Shown here: positions 1,857-64,000 of the stretch, piece after piece
How the letters are laid out: each line of letters begins with the position of its first letter
Numbering within the stretch: the stretch's first letter is position 1
From: Candidatus Moraniibacteriota bacterium
GTDB lineage: Bacteria; Patescibacteriota; Minisyncoccia; Moranbacterales; GCA-2747515
Direction of reading: 5' to 3'
Assembly (NCBI GenBank): GCA_942490825.1
Contig: CALNYG010000013.1
Coordinates: 125,281-189,280, forward strand
Length of the DNA stretch: 64,000 nucleotides
Made by a program: the position numbers and the translations under genes
Notes under the pieces: generated by a model
Databases searched by the model: none
Seen by the model: the letters and a program-made list of their open reading frames with translations, nothing else
What the model was told of the DNA's origin: nothing

Positions 1857-1874
1857 AGCCCGTGCGGCGAGCAC
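1857..1874 (+). promoter_or_regulatory. GC-rich 20-nt motif, copy 1 (AGCCCGTGCGGCGAGCAC), about 40 nt upstream of the thpR start
   Basis: Exact core shared with 7 other sites in the window. Embedded in tgtatcatAGCCCGTGCGGCGAGCAC, which is identical to the site at 10816. Confidence 0.5.
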
Positions 1875-1912
1875 TTGAATTATTTTTAGAAAAAGTTTTA
1901 AATTATAAATTT

Positions 1913-2494
1913 ATGAAAAGGAAATTATTTTTGGGAGTTGATGTTGAACCGCATTTGAAGAAAATGTTAGATCAGAAGATTGAAAAAAATTGGAAAGATT
2001 TGGATTTTCCGATTCGATGGTATCGGAAAGAAAGTTATCATATAAACTTGGTTTTTTTAGGTTGGGTGGATGAGGATTCAGTTATTGATTTATCAAGACA
2101 ATTATATGAGGTTTGTTTAAATTTTCCAAGTTTTGATGTTGAATTTGAGAAAATTAAGTTGGCATATAAAAATAATTCACAGGATAATGATCAACGGGAT
2201 GCAAAGATGGTTTGGTTGGAAGGTGCTGTGAGTGAGGAATTGAAAGAGCTGCAAAAGGTGTTGGAGGAATCTTTAAATATTCATTATATTGATAGAAAGA
2301 GTTTTCGTCCGCATGTGACTTTAGGTCGGATGAAGGCAAAAAAATGGGCTGAACTTGAGGAATTTCCTGAGATTGATCATGAGTTTAAGATTTCGATGGA
2401 TGTGATGAATGTGACTTTGTTTGAGAATGGCTCAAAAGAGGGTTCGCCAGATTATACGCCAATTGATGTCTTTGATTTGGGGGATATTGAGTAG
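1913..2494 (+). CDS. thpR: RNA 2',3'-cyclic phosphodiesterase / 2'-5' RNA ligase (2H phosphoesterase)
   Basis: Two H-x-T/S-x motifs (HINLVF and HVTLGR) with the spacing typical of the LigT family. ATG at 1913 is chosen over the upstream GTG that lies inside the GC motif. Confidence 0.75.
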   Translation: MKRKLFLGVDVEPHLKKMLDQKIEKNWKDLDFPIRWYRKESYHINLVFLGWVDEDSVIDLSRQLYEVCLNFPSFDVEFEKIKLAYKNNSQDNDQRDAKMVWLEGAVSEELKELQKVLEESLNIHYIDRKSFRPHVTLGRMKAKKWAELEEFPEIDHEFKISMDVMNVTLFENGSKEGSPDYTPIDVFDLGDIE

Positions 2495-2506
2495 AAATAA
2501 AAAATA

Positions 2507-2531
2507 GTCCTGTAAGATTTATACAGGACCA
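2507..2531. terminator. Bidirectional hairpin terminator (GTCCTGTA-agattta-TACAGGAC)
   Basis: 8-bp stem flanked by an A-run on the + side and a T-run on the - side. It sits between convergent genes. Confidence 0.5.
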
Positions 2532-2555
2532 TTATAGATAGGTGAAAAAACATTC

Positions 2556-2831
2556 TTACAAGAAAAATAAATGTTCATAAAATTTGAGTGCAATGCTTAC
2601 TGTATTTAAGTAATTATCCAATAAAAACAGTATGATATATACGCACCCAATAAACATTATTTTAATTTTAAAGACAGTTTTATTTTTTGCTATTATGATA
2701 TATTCAGGAATTCCTTTTTCATTTATGGATTTTTCTGCATAATTTTTGTAAAAACTTAGGTCAAATACTTCTAAAAGATAGCCACTAAACATAAGTAGGA
2801 AAATTATAAATAAGTGAAAATAGAACAGCAT
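2556..2831 (-). CDS. Small hypothetical membrane protein
   Basis: 91-aa ORF with two hydrophobic helices. It is the only ORF in a 460-bp intergenic gap and has a terminator downstream. Confidence 0.3.
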   Translation of the reverse strand: MLFYFHLFIIFLLMFSGYLLEVFDLSFYKNYAEKSINEKGIPEYIIIAKNKTVFKIKIMFIGCVYIILFLLDNYLNTVSIALKFYEHLFFL

Positions 2832-2955
2832 AGCAAAACCTCCTTAATTTTATTTTTTGTTGAATGAACTTTAATCAGTATAATCTTTTAATTAAAATAG
2901 TCAATAAATTTTTTTAAGTATTTTTTCAACTCAAAATTTATGCTACAATAAAAAC

Positions 2956-3657: not shown

Positions 3658-3710
3658 ACGTAAGAAAGTTGTATTTTAAATTTATTTTAAGCTTAAAGTA
3701 TAGATTCCGG

Positions 3711-3776
3711 ATAAATTAATTTGTAATCACTCACTTCGTTCGCGAACAAATTATATTTTCCGGAATGACATATCTA
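3711..3776. repeat. Miniature inverted-repeat family 1, short form (GATTCCGGATAAA ... TTTTCCGGAATGACAT)
   Basis: About 66 bp with 11-12 bp inverted termini around a TCCGGA core. Matches the copies at 15296, 21721 and 59352. Confidence 0.45.
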
Positions 3777-3804
3777 GGAGAAATTAAAAATTATAAATTA
3801 AGTT

Positions 3805-4491: not shown

Positions 4492-4600
4492 TTTTCAATT
4501 TACGAATTTTCAATTTTCAATGAATTTTTAAATTTTTCAAAAAAATAAACCGCCCTTTTAAAAAGTTCCTCCTAGAACTTGGACGGTTTTTGTTTCCTAG

Positions 4601-4789
4601 TTATTTCTTTGGAAAGAAAATAACATCTTTTTCACAAACAGGACAGTTAGCACGACCAAATGAGCCTTCTCGTTGATCGTGTGTTACTTGTAGTTCACCT
4701 TTCTTTGCTTCCAGCTCGCTGTTACAGTTGTTACATGTGCCAGTCCAAATTTCTTCTTCTGGAAGTTTCCCTTTTTTGGTTACTTTCAT
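4601..4789 (-). CDS. Small zinc-ribbon protein
   Basis: 62-aa ORF with CNNC...CPVC. Isolated on the minus strand. Confidence 0.35.
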   Translation of the reverse strand: MKVTKKGKLPEEEIWTGTCNNCNSELEAKKGELQVTHDQREGSFGRANCPVCEKDVIFFPKK

Positions 4790-4860
4790 TTTTTTTACCT
4801 TGTGAATAGGCTATATCAAGAAACAATTACGACTAGATTGCCGTAATTTAATAGCTTACA

Positions 4861-6345
4861 TCATCATCATTTTGTCATGTCACTTACCAATGATAATGTC
4901 ATACCAGGTTACCAATAGAAATGTCATACCTATTAAAATTATGTTAGTTTTACATGTTAACATTTAAAAAACATGAAAAACTATGCAAGATACAATAATC
5001 ATGACAAATAAGGAATCTCAAAGGTATGAAATCATAAATAATTTAATAAACAATAAGATAAACGGAACACAAGCATCTAGACAATTAAATTTATCAGTCA
5101 GACAAACTAAAAGGTTAAAAGCTAAAGTAAACAGAAAAGGAATACAAGGAATAATTCATAAAAGCAGGGGGAAAGAAAGTAATAGAAAATTAGATGAAAA
5201 ATTAAAAAAGAAAATCATAAAAACAATCAAAGAAAACTATTCAGATTTTTCATCACAATTAACTTATGAAAAATTAAATGAAGTTCATGAAATTAAAATA
5301 AGTTACACTTCGACGAGAAGAATTAGAATAAACGAAGGTTTAAGTACAGTCAAAAAAAGAAAACAAAATAAAAAATACTTCTCACAAAGAGAAAGAAAAG
5401 AACATTATGGAGAATTAGTTCAATTCGATGGTTCATATCATGATTGGCTTGAAAATGAAGAAGAGCAATGCCTGTTACTTGCAGTAGACGATGCTACTAG
5501 CGAGATAACTCCAGAACTTGATAAAAATGAAGGTATACAAGCAGTATTTAATTTTTGGAAAGAATACGTACAAGAAAAAGGAAGACCATTAGCTATTTAT
5601 CTAGATAAATTCAGTACTTACAAAGTAAATCACAAAAATGCAACGGACAATCAAGAATTCAAGACACAATTTCAAAGAGCTATGAAAGAATTAGATATAC
5701 AAGTAATTTTTGCTAATACGCCTCAAGCCAAGGGAAGAGTAGAAAGAATGAACGAAACTTTACAAGACAGAATGATCAAAGAAATGCGACTAGCTAAAAT
5801 AAATAGTATCGAACAAGCCGATGAATTTATTAAAGAAAAATTTACTCCAGAATTTAATAAAAAATTCAATGTTCCCGCAAAGAAAAAAGGAGACCTACAC
5901 AGAAAACTAACTAAGCAAGAAAAAGATAAATTAAATAATATTTTCTCAATTAAAAGCACTAGAAAAATAAGGAATGATTTTGTAGTTCAATATAAAAATA
6001 GATATTTTCAATTAAATGAAATACAACCAACTACAGTTTACAAAAAGGATGAAGTAATTATAGAAGAACATTTAGATGATTCAATTCATATTTCTAAAAA
6101 AGATAAATATTTAAGTTTTAAAGAATTACCACATAAACCCAAAAAAGAAAATGAACTAAAATTACCAGCTATCACTAAAAGAAAATCAGATTACACTCCA
6201 CCAGCAGATCATCCTTGGAGAAGCTACCAATTTAAAAAAGAAAAATTAAAAGCTCAAAAATTAATTAAATTCTAAAGGTATGACATTTCTAAAGAAAACA
6301 AAGGTATGACATTTCTATTGGTAGTTGACAATCATCATTTTGTCA
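4861..6345 (+). mobile_element. Insertion sequence, ISNCY (IS1202 group)-like
   Basis: Each end carries two copies of a roughly 15-bp site. Left: accaatgataATGTCATACC plus accaatagaaATGTCATACCT at 4888-4930. Right: AGGTATGACATttct twice at 6276-6322. The outer flanks carry direct ATCATCATTTTGTCA at 4864-4878 and 6331-6345. Confidence 0.6.
4983..6275 (+). CDS. DDE transposase (rve-type core, ISNCY/IS1202-like)
   Basis: N-terminal helix-turn-helix (SRQLNLSVRQTKRLKAK), HKSRGKESNRKL, then an integrase-core DDE region (QFDGSYHDW ... AVDDATSE ... KGRVERMNETLQDR). Confidence 0.7.
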   Translation: MQDTIIMTNKESQRYEIINNLINNKINGTQASRQLNLSVRQTKRLKAKVNRKGIQGIIHKSRGKESNRKLDEKLKKKIIKTIKENYSDFSSQLTYEKLNEVHEIKISYTSTRRIRINEGLSTVKKRKQNKKYFSQRERKEHYGELVQFDGSYHDWLENEEEQCLLLAVDDATSEITPELDKNEGIQAVFNFWKEYVQEKGRPLAIYLDKFSTYKVNHKNATDNQEFKTQFQRAMKELDIQVIFANTPQAKGRVERMNETLQDRMIKEMRLAKINSIEQADEFIKEKFTPEFNKKFNVPAKKKGDLHRKLTKQEKDKLNNIFSIKSTRKIRNDFVVQYKNRYFQLNEIQPTTVYKKDEVIIEEHLDDSIHISKKDKYLSFKELPHKPKKENELKLPAITKRKSDYTPPADHPWRSYQFKKEKLKAQKLIKF

Positions 6346-6478
6346 AACGTAATTTATTTGATATAGTTAATATATAGTATTTAAGTTGAATTTATAATTT
6401 TGTGCAGTTTAAGATCCAACTTAAGGTCGACCCTAATTTGGATCTTGAGGAGAATTAATTTTTTAATATTTTATCTTT

Positions 6479-7045: not shown

Positions 7046-7210
7046 AAGGTAGACGTTTGAATAAATAGAGATGGTAACTTTAAATTTTGTAATTCTCTGT
7101 GAGAGTTTCTTCATTCCGTAATTTTTTTTACAAAAAATATTTAGTTTAGAATGATAGGAAATTTGAATGATTATAAAATTTTTAGAGTTTCAAAAAATGT
7201 TAAATGGTGA

Positions 7211-7230
7211 AAAGCCCGTGCGGCGAGCAC
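7211..7230 (+). promoter_or_regulatory. GC-rich 20-nt motif, copy 2 (AAAGCCCGTGCGGCGAGCAC), 80 nt upstream of the 7310 gene
   Basis: Exact match to the consensus. Followed by a T-rich tract and a TTGACA hexamer. Confidence 0.5.
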
Positions 7231-10815: not shown

Positions 10816-10833
10816 AGCCCGTGCGGCGAGCAC
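10816..10833 (+). promoter_or_regulatory. GC-rich motif, copy 3, 45 nt upstream of the exonuclease gene
   Basis: tgtatcatAGCCCGTGCGGCGAGCACttttt. Confidence 0.5.
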
Positions 10834-15230: not shown

Positions 15231-15373
15231 GTAGAGATATTGCACTGCAATGTCTTTGAATGGATAGGGCTTGCATTGCGTTGCATGTTTCAAAATTTAA
15301 GATTCCGGATAAATTATTTTCTAATTCATCACTTCGTTCTGAAAGAAAATATATTTTCCAGAATGACATATCT
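15231..15373. repeat. Miniature inverted-repeat family 1 copy (hairpin GTAGAGATATTGCActgcAATGTCT plus the short GATTCCGGATAAA...CCAGAATGACAT unit)
   Basis: Same architecture as 1710 and 57214. The hairpin stem shows compensatory changes relative to the other copies. Confidence 0.45.
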
Positions 15374-15416
15374 GAGAGTTTGTGGATTTTGTAGGGGTTG
15401 AAAATTTTCAACCCAA

Positions 15417-15436
15417 AAAGCCTGTGCGGCGAGCAC
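15417..15436 (+). promoter_or_regulatory. GC-rich motif, copy 4 (AAAGCCtGTGCGGCGAGCAC), about 185 nt upstream of proB
   Basis: One mismatch to the consensus. Followed by a T6 run. Confidence 0.45.
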
Positions 15437-15621
15437 TTTTTTGATTTGATTTTATTTGTGAAGAGTGTAGAATAGATTGTGTATTAGAAAAATTTATTTT
15501 TATGATTATTTTGATGTCAGAAAATTTGCTTAAAAATAATATTCCCGTTGGGGTATTAAATAAATGATAGAGTTTATAGACTCTAGATTTTTTGGCGAAT
15601 TTAATGATTTAAAAAATAATT

Positions 15622-21720: not shown

Positions 21721-21778
21721 AAGATTCCGGATAAACAATTTTTCCGCTCCGCTACAAAATTATTTTCCGGAATGACAT
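21721..21778. repeat. Miniature inverted-repeat family 1, short form
   Basis: GATTCCGGATAAAcaattTTTCCGctccgc...TTTTCCGGAATGACAT. Confidence 0.45.
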
Positions 21779-21898
21779 GTTTTGTGCGGTTTGTTAATGT
21801 GATGTCTATATATATATCAATAGTCAATCAAAAAGAGTCACAAAAAAATAACAGTATGGTAAAATAAAAATAAGAATCAATTTAAAACTAAAAACAAA

Positions 21899-24680: not shown

Positions 24681-27600
24681 ATGAAAAAAATATTATCAAT
24701 CTTCGTGTTTTTTGTAATAATATTTTTAGGGACATACCATAACGTATTAGCCGCTAATCCAACAATTTCTGCAGTAGAGTTAGTTCCAACACCAACAAAT
24801 GATCCAGAATATACTTTTAATACAGATCAGGAGGGAACAATTACATATGGAGGGGATTGTAGTGCTACTACAGCAACTACAGTAGCAACAATAGGAGATA
24901 ACACAATTACTTTTAGTGGACTTTCAGATGCGACTTATTCAAGTTGTACTGTTATGGTGACTAACACTTCATTGGAAGATTCTAATATTTTAAGTGTTGA
25001 TACTTTTATATTGGAAACAGTTGCTCCAGTATTAACTCAAGTAACTCCAGTTTCAACTCCAACTACAGATACAACTCCAGATTATACTTTTGATACAGAC
25101 GAAGCGGGAACAATTACTTACGGAGGAAGTTGTGCAAGTATTTTGGATGTAAGTGTAGCGACAGCGGGAAATAAGACAATTACCTTTGACAAAACTATTT
25201 TAACAATCCAAGCTGTGGAACCTTTGATAGATGCTACATATTCAGATTGCACAATTAAAGTGACAGATGAAGCTGGAAACATTTCGGAACCTTTAACTGT
25301 AGATTCCTTTACAGTTGAAACAGGGGCTCCAACATTATCTCAATTAGCTCCAATTTCAACTCCAACTAGTGACACAACTCCAAATTATTCTTTTTATACT
25401 GATGAAGCGGGAACAATAAATTATTCAGGAGATTGTGCAAGCACTACTTTAAATGCAAACGCAGGAAATAATACGATTACTTTTGATACGCCTCTATTAG
25501 CGGAGTTACATTCAAATTGTTATATAACCGTAAATGATGGAGATTCTAATTTATCTAATAGTTTGCATGTAAGTGATTTTACCATAAAAGAAGTGCCTTC
25601 AATAAATAATGTAACAGGGGTAATTAATGGAGGAAATTCTATAACTATATCAGGAGCAGATTTTGGAGACAAGTCTGTAGCCGCACCATTGCGTTATGAT
25701 AATTTTGAGGGTGGTACAGCTGATTTAGCAATACCAAGTGATCAACCTGGGGGAGGATGGTCAACAGAATCACATAATGGTACAAACGCTCTTACTTGGT
25801 CAGATGAGACAGTTCGTTTTCCGGGGACATTATCAGCAAAACAATCCTATGATGATGAATTCGCTGGTGCGGGTATTTCTTTGGATAACAGGGATGATGT
25901 GGATACTATTCCCGAGACTAACGAAATGTATGTGTCGGGTTGGTTTTGGTTTGATACCTGGGATGGGCTTACTAACAATACCAAATTCATTAATATGGGA
26001 GTGCCCGATCCAATTCCAGCTGAACATAACGGATGGCAGACAAGACTGGACGGAAATCAAGAGACCGATAATGGACTTTTTTATGCATATATGAGTGATG
26101 ATTGTTCAATAGAGGGGACAAACGGGCAAAAACTTAAATATGAAGATTATCATTCTTTTGAAAATTATTTTCAACCTAATTCGAGTTGGCATAGAATTGA
26201 AACATATTTACGAATAGGATCTGATGGGTATCGAGATATTTATATTGACGGTGTTAAAATAGGAGAATTGATGGGAAATTTCACTTCTAACAATTGTGAA
26301 TTAGAATATGTTCTTATTGGCCATTATTTTCGTTTAGACTATGGTGTTGGGGATCCAACAGGTGTAAGATATTGGGACGAATTATATGTAGACACTACTC
26401 AAGCAAGAGTTGAAATTTGTGAGGATTCTATTTTTTCAAATTGTACTCACAAAGAAATTCAAATTCCTACTTCATGGAATGACATTACAGGAGAAATAGA
26501 GGTTACTTTAAATGAGGGATCATTGGATACATTGGGCGGAAAATATATTTATGTGATAGATTCAGACGGAACAGTTAGTAACAGTTATCTTTTAGATGCT
26601 GACACCACCCCAGATGCATTCACTTTCACCAACATCACAGGTGCAACAACCTCAACCCAATACACTTCAGATACAATTACCGTTGCAGGAATAGATGCAG
26701 GAGCAGACGCAACAATTGAAATCACAACTTGTGATTCAATAGGGACATGTGAATATGAACTTAATAACAGCGGATCATGGACAAGCACATCAGGAACAGT
26801 AAATTTAGGTGATATAGTAAAAGTCAGACAAACCTCATCTTCTAGTTATGGCACTCAAACTGATTTAACTTTAAGTATTGGAGGAGTGGAAGGTACTCAT
26901 TCTGTTACAACTTACATTGACACCACCCCAGATGCATTCACTTTCACCAACATCACAGGCGCAACAACCTCAACCGTCTACACTTCAAACTCAATTACTG
27001 TTGCAGGAATAGATGCAGGAGCAGACGCAACAATTGAAATCACAACTTGTGATTCAATAGGGACATGTGAATATGAACTTAATAACAGCGGATCATGGAC
27101 AAGCACATCAGGAACAGTAAATTTAGGTGATATAGTAAAAGTCAGACAAACCTCATCTTCTAGTTATGGCACTCAAACTGATTTAACTTTAAGTATTGGA
27201 GGAGTGGAAGGTACTTATTCTGTTACAACACTAGCAGATACAACCGCTCCAATAATATCTCAATTAGCTCCAATTTCAACTCCAACTAGTGATACAACTC
27301 CAAATTACATTTTTACTACAGATGAGGCAGGAACAATAAATTATTCCGGAGATTGTACAAGTACTACTTTTTTAAATGCAACTGTAGGAAATAATACAAT
27401 CACTTTCGATGCATTGTCAGTTGATGAACATTCAAATTGTCAAATTTCGGTAACTGATTCAGCAAGTAATATTTCCAATACAGTAGATGTTACTAATTTT
27501 ACAATTAAAAATCCACCTTCAATAAATGATGTGACAGGAGCTTTAATTAATGGAGGCTCTATAACTATATCTGGCTCAGATTTTAGTAATCATGATGACT

Positions 27601-33144: not shown

Positions 33145-33167
33145 AGATTCAAGTTTGCATGATATTT

Positions 33168-33290: not shown

Positions 33291-33408
33291 AAGTTGTGGA
33301 AAATAGATTTGTGTAATACTGATAGTGCTATTGGTATGCAATAAATTTTTAAGTTTTTTATAGGGAAGTCATGGAATTTTATTCTGTGGCTTTTTTGTTT
33401 TGGTGGGG

Positions 33409-33437
33409 TTGACAGGTTTTAGTTTATATGATATGAT
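33409..33437 (+). promoter_or_regulatory. Consensus sigma70-like promoter (TTGACA, 17-nt spacer, TATGAT), now separated from its gene by the IS30 insertion
   Basis: Perfect -35 hexamer, 17-nt spacer and a 5/6 -10. Identical to the copy at 38713-38741. Confidence 0.55.
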
Positions 33438-33454
33438 TGGGTTTCAAATGAGAA

Positions 33455-34527
33455 CCTACCCGCAATAGTCAATCCGACCACCCTATTTTTCATCAACAAC
33501 GCGTAAGCGTTGTTTTTCTTTTTCTAAAGATTCTGTTGGAGATAAATAATCTAAACATTTCATATATCTTTCATTACATTTATCTTGAATAGCTTTAATA
33601 TATTCTTCATCATATTTTGAAATGTCACTTCCTTTAGGAATATATTTTCTAATATATTTATTTACATTTTCCACGCTTCCTTTTTCCCATGAATGATATG
33701 GATGACAAAAGTAAATTGGGATTTTTAAAATTGTTTCTAACGTTTTATGCATTCTAAATAATATATCATTATCTAAAGTTAGAGTTTTCATTTCTGGAAA
33801 TTCTTTTTTGATTTTTAATAATTTTTCGTGAACATTATCTATTGTTACGTCTAATATTTGTTCAATGAATACATATCTAGTTTTTCTATCAATTAACACT
33901 AATAGATAGCCCGTTCCACTTTTTCCTGAAACAATGAAGTCTCCTTCAACATCTCCAATTCTCTCTCTATTTTCCGCTATTTCAGGGCGTTTATCAATGA
34001 ATTTCCTATCTTTTAGCTTCTTTACTTTTATTCTCTTTTTTTCCATATTTTAATCTCTTTATTTTCTTTTTGATTAGCTTTCCATAATCGCTATCTAAAA
34101 AATCATAAATTGTATTTTTTGAAACGTAAATCAAATTTTTTTCTTGATATTTTAATCTTCCTGAGATTGCTTCTGGCGATTGATTATCGCATAATTTAGC
34201 TTCTATAAATTTTCTCAATTTAGAATTACCAATTATCTTAGATCCTCTGAAACTTGCATAATATCTTTTTACATATGATTTATGATTTGCTTTTTCTGGA
34301 TCATATTTGTTTTTTACTGAATTTTTTTTGATTTCATCAATGATGCTTGAATGTGATCTTTTCAGTATTTTTCCTATTTTTCTTTTTGAATATTTTTTAT
34401 CTAAATAATATTTAATTTCTCTTCTTTCTGCTTTACTTATATGTTTAAATGTTTTTTTTCATTAAAAAATTATTAAAATTTATCTTTTTATTTTAACAGA
34501 GTGGTCGGATTCAAAAAGGAATGTAGG
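33455..34527 (-). mobile_element. IS30-family insertion sequence (1073 bp) with a GAA target-site duplication
   Basis: Imperfect 26-bp terminal inverted repeats (CCTAC...AATCCGACCA at both ends). Flanked by GAA at 33452-33454 and 34528-34530. The uninterrupted target is visible in the paralogous repeat at 38745-38760 (caaatgaGAAatttacgg). Confidence 0.75.
33483..34440 (-). pseudogene. IS30-family transposase, split by a frameshift into a helix-turn-helix part (34440-34006) and a DDE part (34046-33483)
   Basis: The N-terminal part (KAERREIKYYLDKKYSKRKIGKIL...) and the C-terminal catalytic part (...HSWEKGSVENVNKYIRKYIPKGSDIS...) overlap by 41 nt in different frames. The ATG is followed by an A8 run. 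Confidence 0.7.
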
Positions 34528-35155: not shown

Positions 35156-35168
35156 CAGAGTTCCCACA

Positions 35169-35235
35169 GAAGGCTTTAGCAATTCGATTTATTTCGAACG
35201 TATAATGTACACGCTAAGGCCTTCTTTCTTTTTAA
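35169..35235 (+). terminator. Cassette terminator hairpin (GAAGGCTTTAGC, 32-nt loop, GCTAAGGCCTTC, then a T-rich tail)
   Basis: 12-bp stem with one mismatch, immediately after the stop. Paralogous copy at 39197-39262. Confidence 0.55.
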
Positions 35236-35303
35236 GAGCTTAAAATATATTTTCTAGATTTTAAAAAGAATTTATATTTACACAATCAAAACTTTTTACA
35301 AGA

Positions 35304-35415
35304 ACAATTTTTACAACCCGTTCCAAACGTTTCTATTTTATACACATCATAAATTAAAAATAAATAAATTTTCATAATTCAAAAACATTTCAGAACCAGT
35401 TGTAAAACTAATTCC
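35304..35415. repeat. Paired-palindrome unit U2 (degenerate, b-type spacer)
   Basis: TTTTTACAACCCGTTCC ... CAGAACCAGTTGTAAAACTAATTCC. The spacer matches U4. Confidence 0.45.
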
Positions 35416-35497
35416 TACGGTTTGATTATATTATCTAAAAATATCAAGTACTTCTATTTTACTTAAATTATAAAATTAAAATAAATCTATAGAGCAG

Positions 35498-38288: not shown

Positions 38289-38471
38289 TCTCGACCCAGC
38301 GTTAGGAATATTTAACGCTGGGTTCATTTTTTTAAAATTACAATTTTTACATAAACAAAAATATCCAACTATCTTCAGAGATAGTTTTTTTATTACCAAA
38401 AATATTTTGCAGAAATAATTTTAAAATATAAAACTTTATTTTTACTTTTCATTAGAGATAAAAAATATTTT

Positions 38472-38594
38472 TGCAGGAACGGGTTTTACAACCCGTTCCA
38501 CATGTTTATCTTTAGTTTATAGATAAAATTTAAAATATAATTTTTCTGTATTTTAGAAACGTTTCGGAACCAGTTGTAAAACTGGTTCCTGCAG
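38472..38594. repeat. Paired-palindrome unit U3 (perfect H1 at 38476-38499 and perfect H2 at 38566-38589)
   Basis: GGAACGGGTTttacAACCCGTTCC and GGAACCAGTTgtaaAACTGGTTCC, both perfect 10-bp stems. The cores GTTTTACAAC and GTTGTAAAAC are reverse complements. Confidence 0.6.
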
Positions 38595-38712
38595 AAGTTG
38601 TGGAAAATAGATTTGTGTAATACTGATAGTGCTATTGGTATGCAATAAATTTTTAAGTTTTTTATAGGGAAGTCATGGAATTTTATTCTGTGGCTTTTTT
38701 GTTTTGGTGGGG

Positions 38713-38741
38713 TTGACAGGTTTTAGTTTATATGATATGAT
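38713..38741 (+). promoter_or_regulatory. Cassette promoter (TTGACA, 17-nt spacer, TATGAT)
   Basis: Identical to 33409-33437. Followed by the conserved leader and the cassette gene at 38878. Confidence 0.55.
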
Positions 38742-38877
38742 TGGGTTTCAAATGAGAAATTTACGGTTAGTTTGTAAATTGAACATTTGGGTAGTTCTTT
38801 GTTAATTTTTGGGTAAGAAACTGTTTTTTACTCGATTTATTTTTAATTCTACGGCAAAAGCCAAGGGAATTTCTGTT

Positions 38878-39189: not shown

Positions 39190-39196
39190 TCCCACA

Positions 39197-39262
39197 GAAG
39201 GCTTTAGCAATTCGATTTATTTCGAATGTACAATGTACACGCTAAGGTCTTCTTTCTTTTTA
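39197..39262 (+). terminator. Cassette terminator hairpin, copy 2
   Basis: GAAGGCTTTAGC...GCTAAGGtCTTC plus a T-rich tail. Confidence 0.5.
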
Positions 39263-39327
39263 AGAACTCGAAAGAGATTTTCTAGATTTTAAAAAGAATT
39301 TATATTTACACAAATAAAAATCTTTAT

Positions 39328-39447
39328 AGGAATAGATTTTATAACCCGTTTGAAGCCTTTCTTTTTTATATATATCATAAATTAAAAATAAATAAATTTT
39401 CATAATTCAAAAACATTTCAGAAGCAGTTGTAAAACTAGTTCCTGCT
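39328..39447. repeat. Paired-palindrome unit U4 (degenerate, b-type)
   Basis: ttttATAACCCGTTtgaa ... CAGAAGCAGTTGTAAAACTAGTTCC. Confidence 0.4.
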
Positions 39448-51441: not shown

Positions 51442-51640
51442 AGACATGTCATTCCGGAAGATATAATTTGTTCAAGAGCGTAGTCCTGTTACCATACGGT
51501 ACAGGGCGTAGCGATTGAATACAAATTAATCTGTTCAGTATCTACACGTTAAGTTTAAAGAAGTCTAAGAGTACATCTTTCTTTCGAGATCCTGAAAAAT
51601 ATTTTTCCGCTTTGCTACAAAATATTTTTCAGGATGACAC
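51442..51640. repeat. Miniature inverted-repeat family 1, full-length copy (19-bp termini AGACATGTCATTCCGGAAG ... TTTTCAGGATGACA)
   Basis: About 199 bp. Collinear with 57214-57403 and 59246-59433. Contains an extra 28-nt hairpin insert (TCCTGTTACCATACGGTACAGGGCGTAG). Confidence 0.55.
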
Positions 51641-51726
51641 TGCGAAAAGCCAATGAGGTGTTTGAACACTTTTAAAGAAGTGTTTTTTTGTGTTAAAATA
51701 AAAGTATAATTATTAAAAATAAAAAT

Positions 51727-52107: not shown

Positions 52108-52127
52108 TGTAAAATTATTTTTTGACT

Positions 52128-52156
52128 GTAGAAACAAGGCAATGCCTTGTTTCTAC
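52128..52156 (+). terminator. Hairpin terminator (GTAGAAACAAGGC-aat-GCCTTGTTTCTAC)
   Basis: Perfect 13-bp stem. Part of a 65-nt element shared with the rbr 3' region. Confidence 0.6.
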
Positions 52157-52187
52157 GAATTAGGAAATAATTTTAAAATTTTTAGTT

Positions 52188-54770: not shown

Positions 54771-54791
54771 AAAAGCCCGTGCGGCGAGCAC
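54771..54791 (+). promoter_or_regulatory. GC-rich motif, copy 5, 65 nt upstream of rbr
   Basis: AAAAGCCCGTGCGGCGAGCAC plus a T8 run. Confidence 0.5.
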
Positions 54792-55445: not shown

Positions 55446-55519
55446 GTAATCAGTAACTTGTAACCAGTTTTGAAGAATTGCTTTTTGACTGTAGAGATGA
55501 GGTAGTGTCTTGTCTCTAC
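55446..55519 (+). terminator. Two successive hairpins after rbr (AACTGGTAA...TTACCAGTT plus T4, and GTAGAGATGAGG...CTTGTCTCTAC)
   Basis: The second hairpin and its flanks (TTTTTGACTGTAGA...CTACGAAT(T/C)AGGAAATAATTTT) are paralogous to the dfx terminator element. Confidence 0.45.
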
Positions 55520-55550
55520 GAATCAGGAAATAATTTTTAATAAAATATGT

Positions 55551-57183: not shown

Positions 57184-57203
57184 GTGCTCGCCGCACGGGC
57201 TTT
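57184..57203 (-). promoter_or_regulatory. GC-rich motif, copy 6, in reverse orientation immediately after the tyrS stop
   Basis: The reverse complement reads AAAGCCCGTGCGGCGAGCAC plus T5. This is the only minus-orientation copy. Confidence 0.45.
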
Positions 57204-57213
57204 TCACTATTTT

Positions 57214-57403
57214 TTGTACATGTCATGCTGGAAGATGTAATTTTTTGTAGAGACGTATTGCAATACGTCTTTGAATACAAATTAATCTGTTCAGTATCTA
57301 CACTTTAAATTTAAAGAAAATTTAAAGTACATCGTTCTTCTGAGATCCTGAATAAATTATTTTTCCACTTTGTTACAAAATAATTTTTCAGGATGACATG
57401 TCT
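57214..57403. repeat. Miniature inverted-repeat family 1, full-length copy
   Basis: ACATGTCATgCtGGAAGATG ... TTTTCAGGATGACATGTCT. Contains the hairpin GTAGAGACGTATTGCAATACGTCT with compensatory substitutions. Confidence 0.55.
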
Positions 57404-58337: not shown

Positions 58338-58901
58338 ATGAATAAAGAAATTTACGAAATAATTTTTTTCGCTAGAGCTGGCCAGGGTGCAAAAAGTGCC
58401 GCTGAGATTTTAGTGCAGGCAGCAATGAAAGAAGGAAAAAACATTCAGGCTTTTCCATATTATGGTCCTCAAAGAAGCGGGGCACCGACTCGTGTTTATG
58501 TTAAAATTTCTGAAAATGAAATTCGTTCTCATGAGCCGATTGAGAGTCCAGATTTATTTGTTGTGATGGATGAAACTTTATTGAAAAGCGATTATGTTAA
58601 AGATAAATTGAGAGACGGTGGTAGAACAATAATAAATACAAGTAAAAATATTGATGATGTAAAAAAAATTATTAGTTGTACTGAAAAAAATATTGATGTG
58701 ATTGACGCTAATAAGATTGCACTAGAGTTGACTGGGAAGGAAAAACCTAATGGAGTTATTTTGGGAAAAATTATTAAGGAGATTAATTTTGTTAAATTGG
58801 AAGGCATTATTAATGAGTTTAAAAATATTTTTGGAAAAAAATTAGGTGATGAATTGGTTGAAAAAAATATTTTGGCGATTCAGGAGGGTTTTAAAAAATA
58901 A
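58338..58901 (+). CDS. porG: Pyruvate:ferredoxin oxidoreductase gamma subunit
   Basis: FFARAGQGAKSAAEIL...FPYYGPQRSGAP motif of the PFOR gamma family. Confidence 0.8.
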   Translation: MNKEIYEIIFFARAGQGAKSAAEILVQAAMKEGKNIQAFPYYGPQRSGAPTRVYVKISENEIRSHEPIESPDLFVVMDETLLKSDYVKDKLRDGGRTIINTSKNIDDVKKIISCTEKNIDVIDANKIALELTGKEKPNGVILGKIIKEINFVKLEGIINEFKNIFGKKLGDELVEKNILAIQEGFKK

Positions 58902-58942
58902 AAAGTAATGTCATTCTGAACAAAAAAATTAAAATTATTCTT

Positions 58943-59227
58943 ATGAAAAAAGATTTAGTAATAAAACATGATTCTGAGAAGGCACCGATCACTGGTGATT
59001 GGAGTGTGAATGAACCTTTTGTGGATGAAGATAAATGTATTGGTTGCGCTAAGTGTGTGGATTTTTGTCCAGACGCTTGTATTTCTTTGAAGGACAAAGA
59101 AAAGGAGATTAATGGAAAAAAGATAATGATGAAGGTTTCAGAAATTGATCGGACTTTTTGTAAGGGTTGTGGTGTTTGTGAAAAGGTTTGTCCTGTGAAG
59201 GCTATTTTTATGAAGCGTAAAAGTTAA
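58943..59227 (+). CDS. porD: Pyruvate:ferredoxin oxidoreductase delta subunit (2x[4Fe-4S] ferredoxin)
   Basis: Two CxxCxxCxxxCP clusters (CIGCAKCVDFCP, CKGCGVCEKVCP). Confidence 0.8.
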   Translation: MKKDLVIKHDSEKAPITGDWSVNEPFVDEDKCIGCAKCVDFCPDACISLKDKEKEINGKKIMMKVSEIDRTFCKGCGVCEKVCPVKAIFMKRKS

Positions 59228-59245
59228 TATTATTAAAAATCCCCC

Positions 59246-59433
59246 AGACATGTCATTCCGGAAGACATAATTTGTTCAAGAGCGTAGCGATTGAATACAA
59301 ATTAGTTTATCCGGAATCTACACTTTAAGTTTTAAGAAATCCTAAGATATAGATTCCGGATAAATTATTTTCTATCTACAAAACGCGATAAATCGACGTT
59401 TCTACAAAAGAAAATATATTTTCCGGAATGACA
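59246..59433. repeat. Miniature inverted-repeat family 1, composite copy (left half of the long form joined to a short-form unit)
   Basis: AGACATGTCATTCCGGAAGACATAATTTGTTCAAGAGCGTAGCGATTGAATACAAATTAG... then GATTCCGGATAAATT...TTTTCCGGAATGACA. Confidence 0.55.
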
Positions 59434-59493
59434 AAAATTTAAGTATGTGTAAATTTAAATATTTTTAAATTATTTGCAATAATAATCTATTTT

Positions 59494-60803
59494 ATGAACA
59501 ATAAAAAAGCATTAACTGGTGGAGCGGCGATGGCGGAGGCTTTACGGCAAATAAATCCTGATGTCATGCCTGTTTATCCAATTACGCCACAGACACCCAT
59601 TATCGAAGGTTTCGCAAAATTTGAAGCGAATGGAGTAGTTGATACAGAAATTATTACAGTTGAATCAGAACACAGTGCGATTTCAGCTTGTGTGGGAGCG
59701 TCTTCAGCTGGAGCACGAGCGGTTACAGCGACCAGTTCGCAAGGGTTAGCTTTGATGAACGAAATTTTATATATTGCCAGTGGAATGAGATTGCCGATTT
59801 TGATGCTGGTGTCGGCTCGGGCTTTGGGAGCACCTTTGAATATTCATGGTGATCATAGTGATGTGATGGGAGCGAGAGATGCGGGCTGGATTCAGATTTT
59901 TCGGAGAATGTTCAAGAGGCTTATGATAATACAATCATTGGTTTAAAAGTGGCAGAAAAAGTTGGTTTGCCAGCTATGGTGGTGATGGATGGTTTTATCA
60001 CTTCACACAGTGTTGAAAATTTGGAAACTTTAACTGACGAGCAAGTGAAAAATTTTGTGGGTGAATATGAACCAAAAGATTCTCTATTGAATTTTCAAGA
60101 TCCGAAGACTTTTGGTGCGGTTAGTTTGCCAGATTCTTATTTTGAATTTAAGGTTGATCAAGAAAAAATGTTGGAAAAAGCGGTGGATATTTTTCAAGAA
60201 GTTTCTGAGGAATATTATGAAATGTTTAAAAATGGTGATGAGAAACGTTTCGGAACGGATTGTAAAATCCATTCTTGCGATGAGGAGGTTGGTTGTAAAA
60301 ATAATGATACTTGCACAGAGAAATGTTTTGAAAGCAGTGGTCTACGACACACTACTTCCGGCGTAGAAAATTTTAAACCTAAAAAGTCGGATGTTTTTGA
60401 ATGTTATAAAGTGGATGATGCGGAAAAGGTTATTGTTGCGGCGGGGTCTGTGGCGGGAACTATTAAGGATGTTGTTGATGAAAAAAGGAATAATGGTGAA
60501 AAAGTGGGTCTTTTGAAAATTGAGCTTTTTCGTCCTTTTCCTTTTGAAAAGATTGCAAGTGTTTTAAAAAATGTTAAGAAAGTGGCGGTGATGGATCGGT
60601 CTTTGGCGAGTGGTTCGAAACCTCCGATTTATTCTGATTTGGCTAGTGTTTCGTTAGAGAAAAATTGTAATTTTTCTTTACGGTCTTATGTTTATGGTTT
60701 GGGTGGTCGGGATGTTTTTGAGAAGGATATTGAGGGGGTTTTTGAGGATATGGATGAGGAAGGTGATTTTGGGGAAGTTAGGTTTTTAGGCTCGGAGAAA
60801 TAA
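59494..60803 (+). CDS. porA: Pyruvate:ferredoxin oxidoreductase alpha subunit, interrupted by a 1-nt frameshift
   Basis: The ORF 59494-59946 carries the N-terminal domain and the ORF 59949-60803 the rest. Reading the T5 run at 59897-59901 as T6 gives the contiguous ...WIQIFSENVQEAYDNTIIGLKVAEKVGLPAMVVMDGF... Confidence 0.8.
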
Positions 60804-60845
60804 AATAAAAATTCAAAAGTTTCTGCTAAGTATGGAGATTTTTTC

Positions 60846-60927
60846 TAATATAAAAAACGGACTGTGAAATCCGTTTATAAATACTTTTAAAATTTTATAC
60901 GGAAGCAGCGGTTTTTACACACTGCTT
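60846..60927. terminator. Two hairpins between convergent genes (AAACGGA-ctgtgaaa-TCCGTTT, and GAAGCAG...CTGCTTC)
   Basis: 7-bp stems flanked by A-runs and T-runs. Located between the porA stop and the minus-strand ORF stop. Confidence 0.45.
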
Positions 60928-60938
60928 CGTACCCTCGT

Positions 60939-61268
60939 TTAAAGGAATGTGTCTCTGATTTTTTCTTGCAGTTCTTGGCTTGGAGCGTCATATATTTTAA
61001 GACCAATGCTACCCCAAGAAATTTCTCGCCCAGTTACTTTGCCTGCAGTCACAACCTCACTTTCTTCCAAATCTGGTGTGAAGTTGCCACAGTTATCGGC
61101 GACTGCGATAATTTCTCTGTGCTGAAGGGTTTGCCCTCCAACTAAGAGTAAATCTCGTTTTTCAAGATAAACAAACTTGTTTGGGTAATGTTTATCTTTT
61201 TGGTAGGGCTTAAACTCTTGTTGGAATTCTCCGTTAACCTTTTTTTCATCTACAAAGAATGTTTTCAT
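60939..61268 (-). CDS. Hypothetical protein (109 aa) inserted between porA and porB
   Basis: Clean ORF on the opposite strand with no recognisable family. Confidence 0.4.
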   Translation of the reverse strand: MKTFFVDEKKVNGEFQQEFKPYQKDKHYPNKFVYLEKRDLLLVGGQTLQHREIIAVADNCGNFTPDLEESEVVTAGKVTGREISWGSIGLKIYDAPSQELQEKIRDTFL

Positions 61269-61346
61269 GCCTTAATTCCTTTTTTAAGTTTATCTTTGTC
61301 AGGTACTTTTTCCTGTTAATATTAACAGGGACCCAACGGTTTACTT

Positions 61347-61370
61347 TACATCATCATTATCATTTTGTCA
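61347..61370. repeat. Solo fragment resembling the outer end of the ISNCY-like element (TACATCATCATTATCATTTTGTCA)
   Basis: Matches TACATCATCATCATTTTGTCA at the IS left flank (4858-4878). Confidence 0.3.
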
Positions 61371-61397
61371 AGTTCAACAAATTTTCACAAAGCTAAG

Positions 61398-61420
61398 AAG
61401 CCCGTGTGGCGTTTGAGCAC
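61398..61420 (+). promoter_or_regulatory. GC-rich motif, copy 7 (degenerate: AAGCCCGTGtGGCGtttGAGCAC), 78 nt upstream of porB
   Basis: Carries a 3-nt insertion and one substitution relative to the consensus. Confidence 0.4.
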
Positions 61421-61498
61421 TGAGGAACTTTTGAGTTATGATATAATTAAAAATAATTAGTCAGTCTTTAAATTTAGAATTTTTAATTATATAAACCT

Positions 61499-62404
61499 AT
61501 GAATAAACAACAAACCAAAAAATTATATCCAGGACATTCAACTTGCGCAGGATGCGGAATACCAGTAATTGTTCGAAACATTCTCGATGCAACAGATGAT
61601 CCAATAATAGTAATAAACGCAACAGGATGCCTCGAAGTAACCACAACAATTCATCCCTACACCTCTTGGAAAGTACCATACATTCACAATGCTTTCGAAA
61701 ACGCAGCAGCAACGGCGGCGGGAGTTGAGACGGCGTATAAAGTTTTAAAGAAAAAAGGAAAAATAAAAGGAAATGTTAAATTTGTAGTTTTTGGTGGCGA
61801 TGGAGGAACTTACGACATTGGACTTCAATCACTTTCTGGAATGTTAGAGCGAGGACATGACGTTTTGTATGTAGCTTATGACAATGAAGGTTATATGAAC
61901 ACAGGAGGACAGAGATCCAGCGCAAGTCCTTTAGGGGCAAATATGACGACAACACCAGCCGGAAAAGAAAGTTTCGGAAATGAAAAATATCGGAAAGATA
62001 TAATGGAAATTGTGAAAGCTCATCATGTTAAATATTTAGCACAGGCGAACGTTGCTTATTTGCCAGATTTGCGGAAAAAAGCAAAAAAGGCATTAGAAAC
62101 GAGCGGTCCAGCTTTTCTTTTGGTTTTTCAGCCGTGTACTAATGTTTGGAAATTTCCAACGTCAGATTATGTTTCGGTAGCACAGTTGGCGACGGAAACG
62201 AATTATTGGCCATTGTATGAAATTGAAAATGGTGATTATAATTTGAATTTAGATGTTAAAAATAAAAAGCCGATTGAAGAATATTTAAAAACTCAAAAAA
62301 GATTTAAGCATTTGTTTGAAGATAAAAATAAGGAGATTATTGAGAGGATCCAGGGGAATGTTGATGAAAAGTGGAAAGACTTAAAAGAAAAAAATATTTT
62401 GTGA
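61499..62404 (+). CDS. porB: Pyruvate:ferredoxin oxidoreductase beta subunit (TPP-binding)
   Basis: N-terminal CxGCG and the TPP-binding GDG...N motif (GGDGGTYDIG...NEGYMNTGGQ). Confidence 0.85.
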   Translation: MNKQQTKKLYPGHSTCAGCGIPVIVRNILDATDDPIIVINATGCLEVTTTIHPYTSWKVPYIHNAFENAAATAAGVETAYKVLKKKGKIKGNVKFVVFGGDGGTYDIGLQSLSGMLERGHDVLYVAYDNEGYMNTGGQRSSASPLGANMTTTPAGKESFGNEKYRKDIMEIVKAHHVKYLAQANVAYLPDLRKKAKKALETSGPAFLLVFQPCTNVWKFPTSDYVSVAQLATETNYWPLYEIENGDYNLNLDVKNKKPIEEYLKTQKRFKHLFEDKNKEIIERIQGNVDEKWKDLKEKNIL

Positions 62405-62515
62405 TTTTAATGGTTTAAGGTAGAATTTAAGAAAGAAGTTGTTTGAAATTTTTTGACAATTAAAAAAGGACATTCTAAGTTCTTTAGAGTGTCCTTTTTA
62501 CCGCCGGTTTACTTT

Positions 62516-62866
62516 TTAAGGGAATATTGGTAATACCAATATAGCAGTCCCTATTCTCTTCCTATGATCGCGATAATCTTCATAAATGTGAATATACCAG
62601 TTTAATGCTTTGTCGTAGCCTTCGATGCTTGTGATGGTGACGTCATGCCATAAGAGTCCCGGCTCATTGTTCCATATTTTTTCCATTATGGCATGGGCAC
62701 TTTCATAATTGCAAACTAATGTTTTCGTTGCTCCAGTCCGCGGAGTAGTCGTTCCAAAACATTCTACTCCCCTGAAATCTTCTGCATACAAGTTCGTGAC
62801 GAAGCAGAAAGTGAGTAAAAAAAACAGGGCGAACACAGAAGCGACAAAAGATTTTCTTTTAAACAT
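62516..62866 (-). CDS. Hypothetical secreted protein
   Basis: Signal peptide (FALFFLLTFCFVTNLYA). 116 aa. Confidence 0.45.
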   Translation of the reverse strand: MFKRKSFVASVFALFFLLTFCFVTNLYAEDFRGVECFGTTTPRTGATKTLVCNYESAHAIMEKIWNNEPGLLWHDVTITSIEGYDKALNWYIHIYEDYRDHRKRIGTAILVLPIFP

Positions 62867-63001
62867 CTTTATTCCTCATAGAAAGAATTTTGTGAACGAT
62901 AATATAACGTCCAAAGAACTACTAAAATTTAACAACACAATCGTAAGAATTAAACTAACTTCTTAACGACTGATTCATAAGTATATACTATAAACAAAAT
63001 T

Positions 63002-64000
63002 ATGTCAACCCCAAAAAGCCCGTGCGGCGAGCACAAAAAAATATTAAAAATAGCAATCGACATTCGGAACATCGGACGCAATCGAACAGGGAGTGAAACC
63101 GTTATTTTACAATTAGTAAAACACCTATTACAAATCGATTCAGAAAATCAATACAAACTTTTAACAGATACAGACGAACAGCAAGTCTTAAATTACATAA
63201 ATGAACATTTAGAATTATCTGATAAAAAAAATGTCGAGGTAATTTCTTTGCAATCCAAAAATAAATTCACTTGGGCGGCATGGACAGTCTGGCGGTGGGT
63301 GAGAAAAAATCCAGTGGATATTTATCATACGGAATATATTTTGCCATTTTTTATGCCAAAATCAATTAAATTAATCACGCACATTCATGACGTTTCTTTT
63401 AAAGTCTATCGAAAACTAATCTCATGGAAGGATATTTTTTTTCTAGACATTTTTATTCCATGGTCAATTAGACGAGCAGATAAAATCATTGCTGTGTCTC
63501 ATTTTACCAAAGCTGAGATTGAAAAATATTATCCAGCTAGTCGTGGAAAAACTGAATTGATTTATAATGCAGTAGCAGATGATTTTGCTGATAATTTTAA
63601 AAATGCAAAAACAAAAGATTTTTTAGCTGTGCGAGAAAAATACAATTTGCCAGAAAAGTATATTTTAGCTTTGGGTACGATGCAACCACGGAAAAACATT
63701 CCATTTTTAGTCAAAGTATATTCAAAAATTTATAAAAAGTTGGACGGTGTAAAGTTAGTTTTGGTTGGAAAAAAAGCACATAATTTTGATAAAGAAATCG
63801 AAAAGGTAATTGAAAAAAGTGATGACGATTTTAAACAAAATGTCATTTTTACGGGCTATATTGATGAAGATGATAAAAATTTAGTGTTTGCAGGAGCAGA
63901 GGTTTTTGCTTATCCATCATTATATGAAGGTTTTGGAATTCCGCCATTGGAGGCAATTTATTGTGGAACTCCGGTAGTGGCTAGCGATATTCCAGTGCAC
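63002..64000 (+). CDS. Glycosyltransferase family 1 (GT4-like), 3' end outside the window
   Basis: KIAIDIRNI start typical of GT4, and an [10 protein letters not shown]...G.PVVASD C-terminal sugar-donor-binding region. The GC motif overlaps codons 5-11. Confidence 0.7.
63014..63034 (+). promoter_or_regulatory. GC-rich motif, copy 8, overlapping the annotated start of the glycosyltransferase
   Basis: AAAAGCCCGTGCGGCGAGCAC followed by an A7 run rather than a T-run. Confidence 0.45.

Follow-up and report, generated by a model that had tools for sequence, protein, structure and literature searches.

A 64,000-nt stretch of the genome of a Candidatus Moraniibacteriota bacterium (GenBank assembly GCA_942490825.1, contig CALNYG010000013.1, positions 125,281 to 189,280 of the forward strand; hereafter the window) carries a short GC-rich sequence, the 18-mer AGCCCGTGCGGCGAGCAC, that recurs from spacer to spacer with hardly a changed letter. 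This repeat is real and has a defined 18-nt boundary, it is present in several genomes, and at orthologous sites it is conserved in excess of its surroundings. It forms part of modular repeats, single copies are gained and lost between genomes, and the copies are biased in orientation and adjacent to promoter-like sequences. We tentatively interpret AGCCCGTGCGGCGAGCAC as an intergenic module that is copied and pasted between sites and stays invariant via a sequence-specific factor, with a DNA-level role as an upstream or operator site at promoters. Our confidence in this interpretation is somewhat less than even.

An invariant 18-mer in five related genomes

A pattern search of the window with the 20-mer AAAGCCCGTGCGGCGAGCAC, tolerating up to three mismatches, returns seven sites, against 0.00 expected from 100 dinucleotide-preserving shuffles. 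An error-tolerant search adds a copy bearing an insertion, and comparison with a sister genome adds a decayed copy, which brings the total in the 64 kb to nine: six exact copies, one with a single mismatch and two decayed, where none is expected. The invariant core of these copies is the 18-mer. It is exact on the forward strand at 1857-1874 (copy c1), 7213-7230 (c2), 10816-10833 (c3), 54774-54791 (c5) and 63017-63034 (c7), and on the reverse strand at 57184-57201 (c6, the sole reversed copy), while c4 (15419-15436, forward strand) has one C>T mismatch. The longer 20-mer is exact in four copies only (starting at 7211, 54772, 57184 on the reverse strand and 63015); the variants at 1855 and 10814 start with ATAGCC, and that at 15417 carries the C>T change. 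The two decayed copies, both on the forward strand, are c8 (61399-61420, AGCCCGTGTGGCGTTTGAGCAC), with one mismatch and a TTT insertion, and a ninth copy at 51648-51669 (AGCCAATGAGGTGTTTGAACAC). The borders of the 18-mer are sharp, with A or T as the preceding base, T or A as the next one and no conserved flanking motif. Its GC content is ~70%, compared with ~31% for the window, along the whole of which positive GC skew is strong.

A preliminary description of the window, made from its letters, had placed this repeat essentially where the seven matches (0.00 expected) now put it, and its figures of about 70% GC for the motif and about 30% for the genome agree with the measured ones. The six exact copies that it counted hold for the 18-mer and not for the 20-mer, which has four. 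All of its eight copies are present, including the one with a 3-nt insertion, which also bears a mismatch; the decayed copy at 51648-51669 makes a ninth. Its statement that the motif is specific to one genome has to be given up, as at least four further genomes of related Moranbacteria contain the 18-mer as well.

Homologues of PorB, TyrS and GpmA assign the window to Candidatus Moranbacteria, and its TyrS and GpmA have 100% matches on a 290-kb NCBI contig. Altogether, five Candidatus Moranbacteria genomes (that of the window and four relatives) carry the identical 18-mer, in 14 exact copies. The metagenome-assembled genome (MAG) RS_12_31 (GCA_023133275.1; loci L087 and L123), whose TyrS is 89% identical to the TyrS of the window, contains six copies, of which three are exact, two have a single mismatch and one has three. 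Two exact copies are found in L126 (a MAG from ERZ25073479), two in L130 (a contig from SAMN18200500) and one in L125 (a Logan contig). The 18-mer is absent from two more distant relatives, L131 (14 kb) and L116 (21 kb). The scan of a genome collection that yielded L087, the first match in a related MAG, used the 17-mer core, and most of its matches were chance ones in GC-rich genomes. Scanning JGI metagenomes with an AT-flanked pattern gave a lone match, which lies in GC-rich coding sequence and is due to chance, and there was no match in viral contigs; a literature search for the motif as a sequence string had no match.

Conservation of the core stands out from its immediate surroundings. 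In the orthologous spacers compared (gpmA-exonuclease, the trmD-proB leader, upstream of pheT and upstream of the rubrerythrin gene rbr), 103 of 108 core positions are identical (95%), against 253 of 383 (66%) in the 60 nt that follow (Fisher p = 3e-11, for pairs that are not fully independent). Around c3, 33 consecutive nucleotides are 100% identical, set in flanks of ~80% identity, and the orthologs of c4 in L126 and L130 are exact copies. Conservation at orthologous promoters, a check suggested in the preliminary description, is found at the c3, c4, pheT, c5 and dfx (desulfoferrodoxin gene) sites, and it is broken at others: the c3 ortholog, kept in L126, is missing in L130 and L131, c6 is missing at its L123 ortholog, and a copy upstream of a Na/Ca exchanger gene in L123 is missing from the corresponding spacer of the window. 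Some copies are caught in decay. The dfx copy has one mismatch in L123 and is heavily decayed in the window, where it is the ninth copy mentioned above. The c5 copy is perfect in the window; its ortholog in L123, located by a half-site search, has three transitions, and an insertion of ~250 nt lies between it and the rbr promoter. The substitutions in decayed copies are mostly GC>AT transitions.

Orientation, promoters and modular surroundings

Of the 20 copies in all genomes, 19 run in one direction, along the strand with positive GC skew (the leading strand), on which nearly all genes are also encoded. Both the strong orientation bias and the non-coding nature of the element, as first described, are supported by these counts, coding DNA holding one copy in 20. 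The usual distance to the next start codon (or, before proB, to an upstream open reading frame, uORF) is 29-128 nt. In the window, c1 lies 53 nt upstream of thpR, c2 79 nt upstream of a D-Ala-D-Ala carboxypeptidase gene, c3 44 nt upstream of a DEDDh exonuclease gene, c4 65 nt upstream of a conserved 21-codon uORF in the leader of proB, and c5 67 nt upstream of rbr. The ninth copy is upstream of dfx, and c8 is found between the divergent promoters of porB and of a reverse-strand ORF of 109 amino acids (109-aa ORF). The reversed copy c6 starts 4 nt past the stop codon of tyrS. The placement mostly upstream of forward-strand genes that the preliminary description gave holds, with the exception of c7, which lies near the start of a GT4 glycosyltransferase ORF (ATG at 63002), inside its first 11 codons, and falls in codons 5-11, encoding K-S-P-C-G-E-H. 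In an alignment with another GT4 protein, the conserved N-terminus of this one, KIAIDIR, falls at residue 1 of the other, which puts the c7 motif within a 14-residue N-terminal extension of the glycosyltransferase.

Many copies stand at the edge of promoter-like sequences. In the window, c1 to c5 each have a -35-like TTGAxx within 12 nt downstream, including TTGACA-17-CATAGT starting 12 nt downstream of c2 and TTGAAA-17-TATATT starting 7 nt downstream of c5. At 13 independent loci, TTGA is found within 16 nt in five (background 10.6%), and a promoter-like pair scoring at least 9/12 starts within 14 nt in four (intergenic background 3.1%). Between 1 and 17 kb, three of the five forward-strand promoter-like sites that score 10/12 abut a copy. 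GTATCAT, which precedes some copies, is in its own right a -10-like box, and at c1 and c3 a -35-like hexamer stands 18 nt before it. The T-run reported after most copies follows four of the seven well-preserved window copies, and across genomes 8 of 18 copies.

About half of the copies form the 3′ end of a longer modular repeat, in which a ~75-nt hairpin (H) module and an optional GTAG-tagged hairpin precede the 18-mer. The H module is an imperfect hairpin with about 11 copies in the window, in both orientations. It ends in the 12-mer CAGAATGACA (11 window matches against 1.0 expected), as in the long imperfect hairpin at 1770-1833 (forward strand), and it has no Rfam match. Further H modules lie at approximately 3692-3775, 7100-7170, 15300-15374, 21721-21780, 51560-51639, 57330-57398 and 59348-59433, and reversed ones at approximately 51442-51562, 57221-57300 and 59246-59329. 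At five of the roughly 11 modules, an 18-mer of matching orientation lies 5-55 nt further downstream, where by our estimate fewer than 0.5 would be expected from independent placement in spacers. Copy c1 stands 3′ of an H module, c2 of a diverged one and the ninth copy directly 3′ of one, c4 has both an H module and a GTAG-tagged hairpin on its 5′ side, and c6 adjoins a reversed H module. As a separate observation, the H repeat (GATTCCGGATAAA...TTTCCGGAATGACA) is often found directly upstream of start codons, and its ATGACA end repeatedly scores as a -35-like hexamer.

The sequences directly 5′ of the 18-mer fall into a few types. A GTAG-tagged or similar hairpin followed by an A-run is present at c4, where the palindrome GTAGGGGTTGAAAATTTTCAACCC occupies 15391-15414 on the forward strand, and at L123:1478, L123:14757 and L130:15947; other GTAG palindromes of the window are found at 1710-1734 and 15231-15255. 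A second type, GTATCAT, precedes c1, c3, both L126 copies and the L125 copy, and a third, AATGGTGAAA, precedes c2, c6, the L087 copy and the dfx copy of L123. The composites are ~160-180 nt long and align at ~71% among c1, c2 and L087, yet the 18-mer within them is 100% identical. Orthologous copies at the c4 and pheT sites have homologous 3′ flanks and 5′ flanks of different types, which means that the 18-mer module, or what lies 5′ of it, has been replaced. By the preliminary description's own account, membership of a longer dispersed repeat with coding or insertion-sequence context would speak against its interpretation, and this is partly the case: about half of the copies do end a composite repeat, and the coding or insertion-sequence context is absent. 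The pyruvate:ferredoxin oxidoreductase (por) operon (porG-D-A-B) is contiguous in the relative L116 and split in the window (58338-62404), with two hairpin repeats between porD and porA and a ~700-nt insertion between porA and porB that holds the 109-aa ORF and c8.

In the mechanism that we propose, AGCCCGTGCGGCGAGCAC would be a lineage-wide cis-element in a group of Candidatus Moranbacteria, members of the Candidate Phyla Radiation (CPR, or Patescibacteria). The 18-mer would be the invariant 3′-terminal module of a family composed of a hairpin module, an optional GTAG hairpin, an A-run and the 18-mer, and these modular repeats would be copied into, and swapped between, AT-rich spacers. A trans-acting, sequence-specific factor encoded by the host genomes would read all 18 positions, and this is proposed to be why they stay identical. 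Acting at the DNA level as an upstream or operator site, the module would link numerous unrelated transcription units to a single regulator or boundary factor. The repeat-spreading process would distribute the module, which would be retained where the sequence-specific factor uses it. We infer the existence of this factor, its action at the DNA rather than the RNA level and any effect on transcription. That something reads the sequence itself is indicated, in the sequences compared, by its excess conservation, its sharp boundaries at 18 nt and its bias in orientation; copy-and-paste behaviour is indicated by the flank subfamilies, flank swapping, gain and loss, intragenic copy and association with other repeats. 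The sense-orientation copies at the upstream edge of promoters make a DNA-level upstream or operator role the most likely one. The decay of c5 in L123, where an insertion cut it off from the rbr promoter, counts in favour of this interpretation, as does the lack of a stable or conserved RNA structure and of an Rfam match.

Several observations weigh against this interpretation. An 18-nt, non-palindromic and never-varying site is atypical of protein transcription-factor sites. No candidate binding protein is found among the window genes, and the unknown proteins of the window have no match to solved structures. The offset between the 18-mer and promoter-like hexamers ranges from 0 to >40 nt, and half of the copies in relatives have no such hexamer nearby. 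The downstream genes are functionally unrelated (thpR, the penicillin-binding protein gene that is the carboxypeptidase above, exonuclease, proB leader, rbr, dfx, porB, uppP, pheT, Na/Ca exchanger), and some placements are exceptional: L123:14757 between convergent genes, c6 reversed after tyrS and c7 within a coding region. Replication direction and gene orientation are confounded in the orientation bias, every locus having positive GC skew. Sister species differ by gains and losses of copies, and the switching of 5′ flanks points to copy-and-paste rather than only site-by-site selection. The transcription-factor or sigma-factor site defining a regulon, as the preliminary description had it, is partly supported: promoter adjacency, orientation bias and orthologous conservation argue for it, and the variable offset, unrelated genes, exceptional placements and turnover argue against a simple regulon site.

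Competing explanations for the invariant sequence

The same copy-and-paste behaviour could account for the 18-mer on its own. It may be the conserved end of small, non-autonomous mobile modules, akin to yeast mitochondrial GC clusters or to mosaics of the REP/NIME type, that are spread by copy-and-paste or gene conversion, with an identity that stems from recent copying of a master rather than from host function; we regard this as possible, though on balance unlikely. Much of the modular evidence fits it: the discrete flank subfamilies (GTATCAT, AATGGTGAAA and hairpin with AAAA), the switched 5′-flank type at the orthologous c4 and pheT sites, the varying presence of copies among sister genomes, the in-frame copy within the glycosyltransferase ORF, the decay of old copies via GC>AT transitions, the tight association of the 18-mer with other repeat modules, and the por operon, unbroken in relatives and split here by repeat-bearing insertions. 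However, the element has no terminal inverted repeats, target duplications or palindrome, and no transposase or REP-associated tyrosine transposase (RAYT) is seen in the 64-kb window or in ~85 kb of relatives. The 18-mer is also exact at orthologous sites even though neighbouring proteins are only 76-89% identical, so recent copying would have had to recur independently, from the same master, in five lineages. Finally, the orientation bias is unexplained unless insertion is strand-specific. The small mobile element or homing target that the preliminary description offered as its alternative is supported about as well as its regulon.

Action as RNA is improbable, taking its two forms together. 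In the first, the element is a compact, weak, bidirectional intrinsic terminator or a hairpin protecting 3′ ends, built from an A-run, a short GC hairpin and a T-run; in the second, the GTATCAT form makes the 5′-terminal hairpin of transcripts that start at the adjacent -10-like box. The forward strand can form a 4-bp stem (GTGC/GCAC), which had been described as the only internal pairing; contrary to that, a stem of 5 bp that includes one G.U pair (GCUCG/CGGGC) and precedes UUUU is also possible on the reverse strand. This reverse form (GCUCG-CCGCA-CGGGC and UUUU) resembles a terminator, and a lenient terminator pattern matches it at three copies, among them c6, directly behind tyrS in that sense. 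A U-run follows the forward form (GUGC-GGCGA-GCAC) at 8 of 18 copies, convergent genes flank one copy, and TATCAT is found directly 5′ of c1 and c3 with a -35-like hexamer 18 nt further upstream. Nevertheless, the hairpins have merely 4-5 bp and are weak (forward core -4.3, reverse core -4.8, and -6 to -8 kcal/mol with A/U flanks), in keeping with the earlier judgement that there is no convincing terminator or repetitive extragenic palindromic (REP) hairpin. Single-strand folds of each copy with its flanks share no structure and, with z-scores from -0.1 to -2.2, are not clearly better than shuffled sequence. More than half of the copies lack the T-run, most are 80-300 nt past the upstream stop codon with other hairpins between, and in 19 of 20 copies it is the antisense strand that forms the better hairpin. 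Moreover, a terminator needs no 18 invariant nucleotides, loop included. Searches with the Rfam 15 covariance models at the gathering threshold give no match anywhere in the window nor at the motif in other loci, and a tRNA search of the window has no match to the motif.

A further explanation, very unlikely in our estimation, would have the 18 bp read by a guide RNA, for instance as 9 + 9 nt by two TIGR-Tas guide spacers. In this model, the copies would be the many chromosomal addresses of one RNA-guided DNA-binding complex, belonging to the host or to one of its mobile elements, most economically a nuclease-dead TIGR-Tas ribonucleoprotein, which would co-regulate dozens of promoters or direct the insertion or exchange of hairpin modules. 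Base pairing with a guide would explain the invariance at every position. One report describes TIGR-Tas targets as 18 bp long (9 + 9) without a protospacer-adjacent motif, and the systems as enriched in CPR/Patescibacteria (PMC12045711); according to another, dead TasR or TasA gives guide-dependent repression of transcription (bioRxiv 10.64898/2026.09.09.750476). The 18-mer is similar in that its invariant block has a length of exactly 18 bp, its flanks share no conserved motif, the site is non-palindromic and apparently intolerant of mismatches, so that every position counts, and its hosts belong to the CPR, where such systems are common. Unlike in a TIGR-Tas system, no guide RNA, tas gene, Nop-domain protein, TIGR-like array or half-site guide arrangement is found in the 64-kb window and ~85 kb of relatives, and viral contigs, scanned for the two possible half-site arrangements, give only chance matches in GC-rich DNA. 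Natural multi-copy chromosomal targets are not reported in the available portions of the two TIGR-Tas papers (PMC12045711; bioRxiv 10.64898/2026.09.09.750476). The match in length may be a coincidence. If true, this reading would give the first natural guide-RNA-defined regulon or homing system in a CPR bacterium.

Dependence on DNA uptake is generally assumed for CPR bacteria, and a strictly conserved sequence that is common to related genomes, with turnover at single sites, could favour DNA of the own lineage in natural transformation; such an uptake sequence is hardly credible here, given ~1 copy per 7-10 kb compared with ~1 per kb for known DNA uptake sequences and uptake signal sequences, near absence from coding DNA (1 of 20 copies), and a 19:1 orientation bias that is unexpected for the uptake of double-stranded DNA.

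Known repeat systems, further window features and significance

The 18-mer lacks defining features of REPs, miniature inverted-repeat transposable elements (MITEs), uptake sequences and classical operators. By analogy, it appears to work most like the conserved end module of mosaic intergenic repeats, such as bacterial interspersed mosaic elements (BIMEs), neisserial intergenic mosaic elements (NIMEs) and BOX elements, or like mitochondrial GC clusters, and it is a member of none of them. REP/BIME sequences, which fall into GTAG- or CGTC-tagged superfamilies, resemble it in being short (~20-40 bp), GC-richer than the genome, high in copy number, intergenic and sometimes intragenic, mosaic-forming and organized in lineage-specific families with turnover (PMC3733652). 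Genuine GTAG-tagged palindromes also adjoin some copies of the 18-mer. In contrast to a REP, the 18-mer is non-palindromic (with a stem of 4-5 bp at most), forms no inverted pairs and is found mostly upstream rather than downstream of genes. The 18-mer and its reverse complement begin with AGCC and GTGC and contain CGTG, but neither GTAG nor CGTC, and no Y1 transposase (RAYT) is present among the window ORFs scanned. Self-BLAST and alignments resolve the composite into a 5′ hairpin module and the 3′ 18-mer, with no inverted termini and no target duplications of the kind expected of a MITE.

NIME (with dRS3) and pneumococcal BOX elements are modular intergenic repeats in which a short conserved module (the 20-bp dRS3, or boxA and boxC) brackets variable ones, and the number and order of modules differ by site and strain. 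The dRS3 sequence, an inverted repeat, serves as a target for phage integration, and BOX modules are 45-60 nt long and foldable; the composites described here differ in having a single asymmetric 18-mer at one end only. Yeast mitochondrial GC clusters are GC-rich islands in AT-rich spacers, occasionally in-frame in genes and variable among strains. They are palindromic hairpins of 30-50 bp with target duplications, and the organism, and presumably the mechanism, is unrelated to that of the 18-mer. The operators of global regulons (CIRCE/HrcA, RDRM/DdrO) share with the 18-mer that one sequence stands upstream of many promoters and is kept at orthologous promoters across species, but known operators are palindromic and degenerate, have a constrained distance to the promoter and control coherent genes, none of which is true of the 18-mer.

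A slightly shorter sequence reaches beyond this lineage. The exact 17-mer GCCCGTGCGGCGAGCAC also occurs in intergenic repeats of Clostridia, Acidobacteria, Deltaproteobacteria, Planctomycetes and Gluconobacter plasmids (26 loci), often after a hairpin and several times per genome. The total number of 17-mer matches is compatible with chance, more than 100 being expected in 596 Gb. Among the mid- and low-GC loci (n = 21), a T precedes the 17-mer in 16 and a C follows it in 16, and the Moranbacteria flanks are different, with A on the 5′ side and T or A on the 3′ side. We have no explanation for the flank bias or for the presence of several copies in one genome, and we do not count these matches as evidence of homology. 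An origin of the cross-phylum 17-mer from tRNA or from a known RNA family was tested and is not supported, nor is a link through a shared downstream gene, a shared longer element or IS110.

The window has several other features of note around the copies. The uORF downstream of c4 (15502-15567, MIILMSENLLKNNIPVGVLNK) is followed by a terminator-like hairpin and T-run at ~15570-15600. It precedes proB in the window and in L126 and proS in L130, and its single rare CCC proline codon suggests that it may be a proline-sensing leader-peptide attenuator. At the gpmA locus, which borders c3, a small gene of the GIY-YIG family is present directly upstream of gpmA in three relatives (L125 6071-6433; L130 9642-9899; L131 9680-9925) and not in the window, which makes this a variable locus. 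A ~60-nt palindromic sequence follows both dfx (52110-52175) and rbr (55482-55537) with 86% identity, and appears to be a terminator-like element that these two oxidative-stress genes have in common. The motif TGACAAAATGATGATG occurs on the reverse strand at 4855-4880, 6331-6345 and 61343-61372, where it overlaps strong -35/-10 predictions. It stands upstream of small reverse-strand ORFs, including those of a zinc-ribbon-like peptide (~4600-4790) and the 109-aa ORF in the por insertion (60939-61268).

Other parts of the window carry traces of larger elements. A likely insertion sequence occupies 4910-6323, with a 430-aa ORF that has helix-turn-helix and weak rve-like integrase matches and is flanked by inverted repeats TAGAAATGTCATACCT (4916-4931; 6276-6291 and 6302-6317). 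Two direct duplications (33165-33454 and 38469-38758, 290 nt at 98%; 35162-35416 and 39190-39444, 255 nt at 89%) surround an rve integrase fragment (33483-34046, reverse strand) and several ORFs without matches, and this region may be the remnant of an integrated element. An 1855-aa ORF at 24681-30248, with internal tandem repeats of 300-318 nt (26600-27229, 28501-29404) and a weak, sub-threshold NCBIfam match, probably encodes a repetitive surface protein.

CPR/Patescibacteria have tiny genomes with few recognisable regulators, and their cis-regulatory DNA and mobile micro-elements are almost unexplored. A letter-perfect, asymmetric 18-bp site in at least five genomes, set in spacers at 66% identity, offers a handle on whatever reads it, be it a regulator, a recombinase or a guide-RNA complex. 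If the 18-mer is selfish only, it would still be an unusual repeat (non-palindromic, 18 bp, strand-biased), usable as a marker of the lineage. The 18-mer may also help explain how spacers are remodelled in these reduced genomes.

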